Position numbers: made by a program. From the NCBI RefSeq assembly GCF_013122565.1, contig NZ_CP053258.1: a DNA stretch of 64,000 nucleotides; one strand, 5' to 3'. Shown piece by piece: positions 42,001-45,000 of the stretch (position 1 is its first letter; each line of letters begins with the position of its first letter). Source of the stretch: Escherichia coli (lineage in GTDB: Bacteria; Pseudomonadota; Gammaproteobacteria; Enterobacterales; Enterobacteriaceae).

Positions 42001-45000
42001 TAGAGCGGATAAGATGCGTTTCCAGATTGACTTATCCTCACTAAAGGATAAAACTGATAATATCCCCTTAAGCGGATAAATTTGCTGTGGACGTATGACA
42101 TGATGAGCTTTCAGAAGATCTATAGCCCAACGCAATTGGCGAATGCAATGAAACTGGTTCGCCAGCAAAATGGCTGGACGCAGAGCGAGCTGGCGAAAAA
42201 AATCGGCATTAAGCAGGCGACAATTTCCAATTTCGAAAACAACCCTGACAATACCACGCTGACGACATTTTTTAAGATATTACAGTCGCTTGAACTCTCA
42301 ATAACGCTATGCGACACGAAAAACGCTGCGCCAGAATCAACTGAACAGCAAGATCTGGAGTGGTAATGCCTAAACTTGTCACGTGGATGAACAACCAGCG
42401 GGTAGGTGAGTTAACGAAGCTTGCCAACGGCGCGCACACCTTTAAGTATGCGCCGGAGTGGTTAGCCAACCGTTATGCAAGGCCGTTGTCACTTTCGCTG
42501 CCATTGCAGAGGGGGAATATCACCTCTGATGCCGTATTTAACTTCTTCGATAACCTGTTACCCGATAGCCCGATTGTACGTGACCGGATCGTAAAACGTT
42601 ATCATGCTAAATCCAGACAACCGTTTGATTTATTGTCAGAAATAGGGCGAGACAGCGTTGGTGCCGTGACGTTAATACCCGAAGACGAAACCGTAACGCG
42701 TCCGATAATGGCATGGGAAAAGCTGACTGAAGCCAAACTTGAAGAAGTATTAACGGCTTATAAAGCAGATATCCCGCTAGGCATGATTAGAGAAGAAAAT
42801 GACTTTCGCATCTCGGTTGCTGGCGCACAGGAGAAGACAGCACTGCTCAGAATAGGCAATGACTGGTGCATTCCGAAAGGAATAACGCCGACGACGCACA
42901 TCATTAAATTACCGATTGGGGAAATCAGGCAGCCCAATGCGACGCTCGATCTCAGCCAAAGCGTTGATAATGAGTATTACTGTCTGCTGCTGGCGAAAGA
43001 ACTTGGGTTGAATGTTCCGGACGCAGAAATCATTAAAGCGGGAAATGTGCGCGCGTTAGCGGTCGAACGTTTTGACAGGCGTTGGAATGCTGAGCGAACG
43101 GTTTTACTTCGCTTGCCACAGGAGGATATGTGTCAGACATTCGGTTTACCTTCATCGGTGAAATATGAATCAGATGGAGGCCCAGGCATCGCGCGGATCA
43201 TGGCTTTTTTGATGGGGTCCAGCGAGGCGCTGAAAGATCGCTATGATTTTATGAAGTTTCAAGTGTTCCAGTGGTTGATTGGCGCAACGGATGGCCATGC
43301 AAAAAACTTCTCCGTATTTATTCAGGCTGGCGGCAGTTATCGGCTCACACCATTTTACGACATCATTTCGGCATTTCCGGTCCTTGGCGGTACGGGAATA
43401 CACATCAGCGATCTCAAACTGGCAATGGGGCTTAACGCATCCAAAGGCAGAAAAACGGCAATCGATAAAATTTATCCGCGACATTTTCTGGCGACAGCAA
43501 AGATGCTGAAATTCCCGGAAGTGCAGATGCATGAAATACTAAGTGGCTTTGCCAGAATGATTCCGGCAGCACTGGATAACGTGAGGACTTCATTACCGAC
43601 AGATTTCCCGGAGAACGTGGTGACGGCAGTTGAAACCAATGTGTTGAGGATGCATGGACGGTTAAGCCGAGAATACGGTAGTAAGTGAGATATGGGGTTT
43701 GGTCGTTGTTAATGAGCACGAATCATGACCGCCAATGGCTGGATTCTCCCTTGATTTATGTTGGTGCGCATAATGTATATTATGTTAAATTGACTGCGGA
43801 AGTCCTTTACTTCACCATTCACTCTACATACAGATAAATCAATACGTTGTGATTTATGACTTCCCTCCCGTTTCTTTTGTTAGGTTCATTATAGGGAATT
43901 CAAGATATCTATGTTTGGAAGCTCCACGCAGTAGCAGCCGGTGCGGTGGCTCTCTATGCCCGCCCTGTCTTTCATCCGTTTGCCCGTCAACATAAAGGTA
44001 TTACCGCCTTGCCCGGGTGGATGTCCAGCCTGCAGGGAAGCCCGGTGACCCTCATCGGTAATGTATTCCCGCTTGTTGTCAGTCTGAACAGTGTTCTTTT
44101 GTAGTGGCCAAGTAATATTGGACACTACAGAAGTGAGGGCCGGCATATTATCTGAAGCTGTATTTTATCCCCAGCGCTCCGGAGATAGCATTGCTCCCGT
44201 GACCTCCTGCCTGATATGCGACTCCGCCATTCACTGACAGATTTTGAGTAATCACCCCATCAATACCTGTCTTTATCTCTCCCTGATTTCGGCCACCTGA
44301 CAACAACTGGCTGTCACCACTCATTTTAACACCAAATTCATGAGTGTTATGGATCCAATTTGCCTCTATATACGGACGGAACTCCCGCCCGGTATCCTTA
44401 TCCAGGGTGCTTTTCACATTCCAGGATGCACGAATACCTGCTTTTGTCTGAAGATTATTTTTCCCAGTGCCCTGTACCACAGTTCCGTTATCTTCCTGAT
44501 GTGTATCCGGAGTAACCCCCATCCAGATAGCCTGCAGATGAGGCTGTAACCAGAATTCACCTTTAATTCCCTCAGGTGACGTCCATGTATGCACATTCAG
44601 GTTATACCCTCCGCCCACGGAAGCGGTTAAACCATTCAGGTTATATTTTTCTTCTTCCAGCCCGTCGCCTTTCACTGATGCATTAAACCAGTTATATTGC
44701 ATCCAGGTTTCAGCAAAGAGGCCTGTTGCATTTGCCCCATTCTGATACCAGGTTCCGTATAACCCGGCCGAATAACCATCCAGTGTATTTCTGGCCCGTT
44801 TCTTACTCGTGTGGTTTATCGTTTTACCTTTTGCGTTTGCATAGCCACCCATAATGCCCAGGGTAAAGTCACCCAGTTTTTCAGCGTGGTATTTATAAAT
44901 GTCCCCTCCAAGTTGATTGATAAATTGATTGGTTGTTGTTTTATTTTGCCCATCACTAAGCTTACCAGAGGTTCTTCCGCCCGTAATCTTCATCCACACA

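Follow-up and report, generated by a model that had tools for sequence, protein, structure and literature searches.

The closest described relatives of the locus reported here are the plasmid-borne aah-aidA (AIDA-I) gene pairs of porcine and enterotoxigenic Escherichia coli (ETEC), the IS3-family insertion sequence (IS) ISEc31 together with solo IS ends left by IS-mediated rearrangement, an IS-rich island located between hipA and yneL in ETEC chromosomes, and the K-12 pseudogenes of the same locus (yneL, ydeT and the frameshifted yneO). In this study, we analysed a 64,000-nucleotide stretch of the E. coli contig NZ_CP053258.1 (assembly GCF_013122565.1), hereafter the window, with respect to the 459-bp convergent gap (43689-44147) between hipA (42360-43688, plus strand; last base 43688) and an AIDA-I-like gene on the minus strand (stop codon at 44148-44150). 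This gap is very probably a non-coding, layered scar that records successive occupants of the hipA-yneL hotspot. Direct observations comprise the five layers with their breakpoints, as well as a second, identically oriented ISEc31-like end beyond the aah-aidA module. Judged from sequence features, the gap probably does nothing more than provide the 3' untranslated region of the two convergent transcripts. The layers, the adjoining cargo and the only sizeable open reading frame (ORF) of the gap are as follows.

43689-43790: hipA 3' flank, universal backbone including K-12, 102 bp
43791-43874: older backbone segment, 84 bp, in about 960 genomes, mostly of B2 type, absent from K-12
43875-43889: linker with no assignable origin, 15 bp, shared only with the UTME-7 group
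43890-44099, plus strand: decayed 5' fragment of an orphan gene for a 1037-aa protein, 21 nt of upstream sequence and roughly codons 1-115, ATG at 43911
44100-44130, plus strand: solo ISEc31-like (IS3-family) right-end terminal inverted repeat, 26 bp (44100-44125) followed by TACAG
44128-44147, minus strand: aidA 3' flank travelling with the aah-aidA module, 20 bp, shared with AIDA-I plasmids
44148-47735, minus strand: AIDA-I-like autotransporter, 1195 aa, Pfam ESPR, AIDA and AC_1
47750-48910, minus strand: aah/TibC-type heptosyltransferase, Pfam TibC_1st and Glyco_transf_9
49128-49605, minus strand: ISEc31-like IS3-family remnant, right-end repeat at 49128-49153 in the same orientation as the solo repeat
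43889-44146, minus strand: ORF of 85 aa, most likely spurious, with its ATG 1 nt past the aidA stop

The product of the AIDA-like gene was recorded in four contigs, and the order hipA-gap-aidA was the same at both places displayed. Because the identical 459 bp was also present, in the same context, in the assemblies SRR11451224 and GCA_018578885.1, the gap is not an assembly artefact; of these two further loci, one was 100% and the other (GCA_018578885.1) 99.3% identical to the window over 15.6 kb. The first-pass annotation had described a convergent gap without a terminator or conserved ORF, and this description stands: a consensus scan of 43500-44300 returned 0 terminator-like and 0 promoter-like sites, an Rfam search of the gap gave no match at E<=1, and three plus-strand ORFs of the gap had no Pfam match. 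The same annotation had proposed that the gap might hold an integrase remnant, an IS end, or the displaced 5' part of yneL. Nothing integrase-like was found, in that no ORF of the gap matched Pfam or NCBIfam and Rfam gave no match; no six-frame search with integrase profiles was made. K-12 yneL maps to 58701-59149, about 14.9 kb to the right, which removes yneL from the gap. An IS end, on the other hand, is present.

This IS end is a 26-bp ISEc31-like terminal inverted repeat at 44100-44125 that abuts the aidA flank. Between its sequence (TGTAGTGGCCAAGTAATATTGGACAC) and the ISEc31 right-end repeat (TGTAGTGGTCAAGTAATACTGGCCAC), 23 of 26 positions agree. The sequence starts with TG, which is typical of IS3-family ends, and is followed by the five bases TACAG, as in ISEc31. 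When the ISEc31 repeat pattern was searched with up to 3 mismatches, the 44100 site was the one match in the whole 64 kb, where chance alone would give 0. The repeat starts exactly where homology to the 1037-aa gene stops (GTTCTTTT followed by GTAGTGG versus GTTCTTTT followed by TCAG), and its orientation is such that the IS body would extend rightward, toward aidA. IS homology stops at about 44130, where the aidA flank takes over; neither an adjacent orfA/orfB transposase gene nor a matching other end was found. As judged from these alignments, 44100-44130 is a solo IS end and not a complete IS. An extension of the IS homology into 44131-44147 was tried and not accepted, since the extended alignment required numerous gaps and scored no higher.

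The repeat search also paired the 44100 repeat with a direct copy at 49128-49153 (81% identity), which is the sole repeat that ties the gap to the far side of the island. This copy belongs to a longer ISEc31-like remnant, in which 49128-49209 and 49215-49604 were about 87% identical to ISEc31 (L007:1201-1282 and 1747-2137; positions in comparison records are given as locus and coordinates throughout). The remnant carries an internal deletion of about 465 bp, lacks its left end, and retains an N-terminal fragment of OrfB on the minus strand. ISEc31-like ends thus flank aah-aidA on both sides in direct orientation and bracket the cargo at 44148-48910 (minus strand). When compared with ISEc31 and with solo ends that result from IS-mediated rearrangement, the 44100 site shares the TG start, the 23/26 match, the position exactly where a host gene is truncated, and the nearby same-orientation remnant. 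It differs from ISEc31 in that it has no transposase gene or left end, in that a loss of 5 nt has made it a near-perfect palindrome, and in that its neighbouring remnant is only about 87% identical.

The gene fragment at 43890-44099, which had been overlooked in the first reading, makes up more of the gap than any other piece. Sensitive BLASTN tied this interval to the start of a 3114-bp plus-strand gene, of which intact copies were found in ETEC chromosomes and in large Klebsiella and Pantoea plasmids (for example, ETEC-2264 L005:7022-10135 and a Pantoea deleyi plasmid, L009:6022-9135). The segment 43890-43925 was 95% identical to ETEC-2264 L005:7001-7037, and 43939-44100 was 92% identical to L005:7200-7365; the match takes in the ATG and 21 bases upstream of it. 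In a global alignment with the intact gene, the window showed deletions of about 115, 31, 5, 1 and 3 bp, with the 1-bp loss falling in codon 4. Translated 43940-44104 aligned with residues 66-115 of the 1037-aa protein at 84% over 50 aa (E=6e-25), and the homology ends at about codon 115. The reading frame, of about 1030-1066 codons in its intact form, is therefore not intact here, as only about 115 damaged codons are left, and by this alignment 43890-44099 is a pseudogene fragment.

The intact protein is itself an orphan. It gave no Pfam, NCBIfam or PADLOC match at E<=0.1 and no relative in the PDB. Its homologues fall into about 80 clusters, nearly all of 1027-1078 aa save for a few partial ones, and come almost entirely from Enterobacterales; in nearly all sources that give names they are called 'hypothetical protein', and none has a precomputed Pfam domain. 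The intact relative is named 'chromate transporter' (WP_000467149) by the Prokaryotic Genome Annotation Pipeline (PGAP). We did not adopt this ChrA identity, as it is unsupported by any family-profile match. By eye, the N-terminal part of about 200 aa appears to contain about four membrane helices; it is followed by a large domain with no relative in Pfam, NCBIfam, PADLOC or the PDB. The homologues were located on IS-rich islands and megaplasmids.

With regard to the ETEC island (ETEC-2264 and NCTC9038), the likeness to the window consists of the same hotspot, a right flank at the yneL remnant and fimA, and a gene start that is about 92% identical. The two differ in that the ETEC gene is intact, or is cut elsewhere by IS1203/IS21, whereas the window keeps only the damaged 5' codons. 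Moreover, in place of hipA, the ETEC gene has a 243-aa hypothetical gene and IS66 as its upstream neighbours.

The layer next to the AIDA-like gene travels with the cargo. Homology to AIDA-I plasmids begins at 44128 in every match listed, at 96-97% identity over 44128-44400, and its first 3 bp still fall within the IS homology; plasmid pC11 was 93% identical over 44128-46953. The window and the plasmid modules have in common the gene pair, the aidA stop, the 20-bp 3' flank, and 93% nucleotide identity over the C-terminal 2.8 kb of aidA, and both are bounded by broken IS elements. In contrast to the plasmid modules, the window module is chromosomal, at hipA-yneL, and the IS sequence beyond the 20-bp flank is different. 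The aidA product is 1195 aa in the window versus about 1288 aa implied by the 3867-nt plasmid coding sequence (CDS), and aah is only 82% identical. In this lineage, then, a chromosomal AIDA-type module is bracketed by ISEc31-like ends. The passenger repeats of the chromosomal aidA-like gene were found to be divergent from those of plasmid aidA, and the Autotransporter barrel family (PF03797) was not included in the precomputed Pfam list for the AIDA-like protein. Literature searches on AIDA-I with hipA, and on ISEc31, yielded no description of this locus.

At the hipA side, the gap is chromosomal backbone in two steps. The segment 43689-43790 was matched in 4741 of the 5426 complete E. coli genomes, typically over query positions 1-102 at 91-93% identity, and K-12 homology past hipA ends at 43790. 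When 43785-43895 was used as the query, 960 genomes were matched and, among the matches listed, homology ended at query position 90, that is, at 43874; the alignment of ATCC 11775 agrees with this endpoint. The carriers of 43791-43874 are mostly of B2 type (ATCC 11775, ATCC 25922 and sequence type ST131), at 90-92% identity, and by this distribution the segment is backbone that has been lost in K-12. The first-pass annotation had placed the left edge of the strain-specific block in this gap and had noted that presence in K-12 would make the sequence backbone. The placement holds, with K-12 homology stopping at 43790 and B2-type homology at 43874, and the second point proved partly true: the first 102 bp are K-12 backbone and the rest of the gap is not, while 186 bp are backbone in about 960 genomes.

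Between this backbone and the gene fragment lies the 15-bp linker (43875-43889), the only part of the gap now left without an assignment. It aligned only loosely with the region upstream of the 1037-aa gene. Within that upstream region, a sequence (TGAATTTCCCCGCG...) resembling backbone 43858-43871 (TGACTTCCCTCCCG) was also considered, and was not used since the match was too weak. UTME-7, LHM10-1 and CP52E were the only complete genomes to share 43875-44005, with a match that runs through 44005. The divergence of UTME-7 at that point had raised the possibility of a mobile-element terminus at 44005/44006. However, a wider BLAST comparison revealed that window segments 44006-44771 and 46051-49339 are missing from UTME-7, so that it simply carries a deletion there; by this comparison UTME-7 is a deletion derivative of the window's arrangement. 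Three further genomes, VE-T9, XJ5.2 and wlxctx60, matched only from 43781/43784 to 44005, at 99%, and each record had a second matching place. This pattern suggests an insertion or rearrangement in these strains about 93-96 bp past the hipA stop.

All components of the gap are ordinary ones, namely a solo IS3-family end, a pseudogene fragment, a module flank, and backbone. Together they explain how the island was joined, and hold nothing surprising to a specialist. The layers can be read as the following history. The 1037-aa gene would once have sat next to hipA, beside the 186 bp of chromosomal backbone. An ISEc31-like element may then have inserted into this gene, cutting it at about codon 115, after which an IS-associated rearrangement would have placed aah-aidA where the IS body had been, either through recombination or deletion between IS copies or through movement of a unit composed of the right-end repeat, aidA, aah and an IS. 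The remainder of the 1037-aa gene would have been lost, and the surviving fragment would have decayed via small deletions. The rightmost layer is the 20-bp 3' flank native to the aah-aidA module that came in.

Several points weigh against this account. The 15 bp of the linker have no assigned origin, the IS sequence at 44100 amounts to only 26-31 bp and is palindromic as well, and the other IS end is missing; with neither this end nor the downstream remainder of the target gene contained in the window, no target-site duplication can be checked. No intermediate was present among the 5426 genomes, so we infer the order of events. None of these genomes has the 1037-aa gene intact and joined to hipA at 43875, none has a complete IS at codon 115, and none is a donor with the repeat-aidA junction. 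Finally, the absence of function is argued from sequence alone.

A more specific form of the history is that the 44100 repeat and the 49128 IS copy once belonged to one mobile unit (right-end repeat, aidA, aah and IS), which an IS3-family transposase would have moved whole into the 1037-aa gene, with the retained palindrome now acting as a 3' stem-loop of the aidA transcript. We regard this combination as doubtful. If true, it would describe an adhesin-carrying transposon, bounded by IS ends, that shuttles AIDA-type adhesins between plasmids and chromosomes.

A first alternative concerns the palindrome, and it is compatible with a layered scar, as both can hold. The 30 nt at 44100-44129 form an imperfect palindrome, which may have been recruited as a stem-loop for terminating or stabilising the aidA mRNA, and perhaps a read-through hipBA mRNA as well; the gap would then be functional. 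The predicted hairpin has an energy of -14.9 kcal/mol as minus-strand RNA and -19.2 kcal/mol as plus-strand RNA, compared with -6.3 (minus) and -12.1 (plus) kcal/mol for the equivalent ISEc31 sequence. It is thus stronger than its ISEc31 equivalent on both strands, because the 5-nt loss after the repeat extended the stem. Moreover, it appeared in both the minimum-energy and the centroid folds of the minus-strand RNA, directly past the aidA stop, and the gap has no other terminator candidate. Against a co-opted stem-loop, no U tract follows the stem on either the minus strand (AAAAGAAC) or the plus strand (GAAGUGAG), so that the hairpin does not qualify as a rho-independent terminator, and the consensus terminator scan was empty here too. 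The flank as a whole folded no better than shuffled sequence (z = -1.06 and -0.43), and AIDA-I plasmids do not have this element beside aidA. We therefore consider such a co-option unlikely; that the hairpin helps to stabilise the aidA mRNA at its 3' end is conceivable, yet has no support.

A second alternative dispenses with the IS, in that the 26-mer at 44100 would be a chance palindrome, or native flank of aidA or of the 1037-aa gene, and the junction would have arisen through plain illegitimate recombination. The shortness of the element (26-31 bp, with no transposase sequence adjoining), its self-complementarity, and the different sequence of AIDA-I plasmids at the equivalent position are all in keeping with this idea. 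It is nevertheless highly improbable in view of the 23/26 match to the ISEc31 right-end repeat with its TG start and TACAG continuation, the chance expectation of 0 in 64 kb, and the identically oriented, related end 5 kb away, which has an IS body attached. Furthermore, the intact 1037-aa gene has TTTTTCAGAAAAAA at that point, and not the 26-mer.

The ORF of 85 aa on the minus strand remained to be weighed as a coding element. It runs from the aidA flank through the IS repeat into the antisense of the 1037-aa gene fragment. Its earlier description as an ORF without recognisable features was borne out: it had no Pfam or NCBIfam match, an exact-sequence look-up of its product in an index of 153 billion genes returned no recorded gene, no gene was called in the gap in loci L010 or L011, and no Shine-Dalgarno sequence precedes its ATG (upstream CAGATAAT). 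UTME-7 is also informative in this respect. PGAP annotates there a 470-aa 'autotransporter beta-barrel domain-containing protein' (L001:8203-9615), which corresponds to 43889-44005 joined to 44772-46050. In this CDS, the middle of the aidA-like gene is fused in frame to 36 antisense codons of the gap, and most of the barrel is lacking; as a consequence of the UTME-7 deletion, the CDS ends in the last 36 residues of the window's 85-aa ORF. That the ORF is a genuine small gene with translational coupling to aidA is hardly credible, for although it has 85 open codons and a TAA-T-ATG spacing of the kind known in coupled genes, it is stitched from three unrelated pieces, has neither family match, recorded product, gene call nor Shine-Dalgarno sequence, and in the UTME-7 group has its first 49 codons deleted, with the remainder forming the accidental tail of a truncated autotransporter. 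ATCC 11775 has an annotated 85-aa hypothetical protein downstream of hipA, which was considered as the same ORF; its sequence is unrelated and the equal length is coincidental. For annotation, these data argue against the 85-aa ORF as a gene and account for the odd C-terminal tail of the UTME-7 'autotransporter' CDS.

Viewed across genomes, the hipA-yneL interval is a hotspot of cargo replacement. Relative to K-12, the variable block of the window extends from 43791 to about 58700, where the yneL remnant begins (58701-59149; K-12 yneL is L002:6312-6777), followed by fimbrial genes. ETEC strains carry at this site the IS-rich island with the intact, orphan 1037-aa gene, and the right flank of the ETEC-2264 island matches window 58701-59370. 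B2 strains have a different insert of 1.6 kb with a gene for a short-chain dehydrogenase/reductase (SDR) oxidoreductase, and the window has aah-aidA. The K-12 pseudogenes of the locus are similar to the gap in being turnover remnants in the variable region flanking hipBA, but their genes and breakpoints differ, and the K-12 remnants lie to the right of 43790 in K-12-specific sequence.

Additional observations were made around the hotspot. The ETEC island carries genes annotated corA and ysgD (ETEC-2264 L005:10436-11594; NCTC9038 L008:13749-14907), the names of a K-12 gene pair located elsewhere on the chromosome. The island pair has the look of a copy that was translocated, perhaps by the adjacent IS1. 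The yneL remnant of the window is about 91% identical to K-12 yneL, and the fimbrial region to its right (59150-64000) exceeds the length of its K-12 counterpart, in which ydeT is truncated; ATCC 11775 (B2-type) aligns continuously to window 58912-63332. On the other side of hipBA, the 1806-aa autotransporter of the 'ECSE_1600 family' upstream of hipB (36457-41877) is intact in the window and frameshifted in K-12, where it corresponds to the yneO/ydeK pseudogene.

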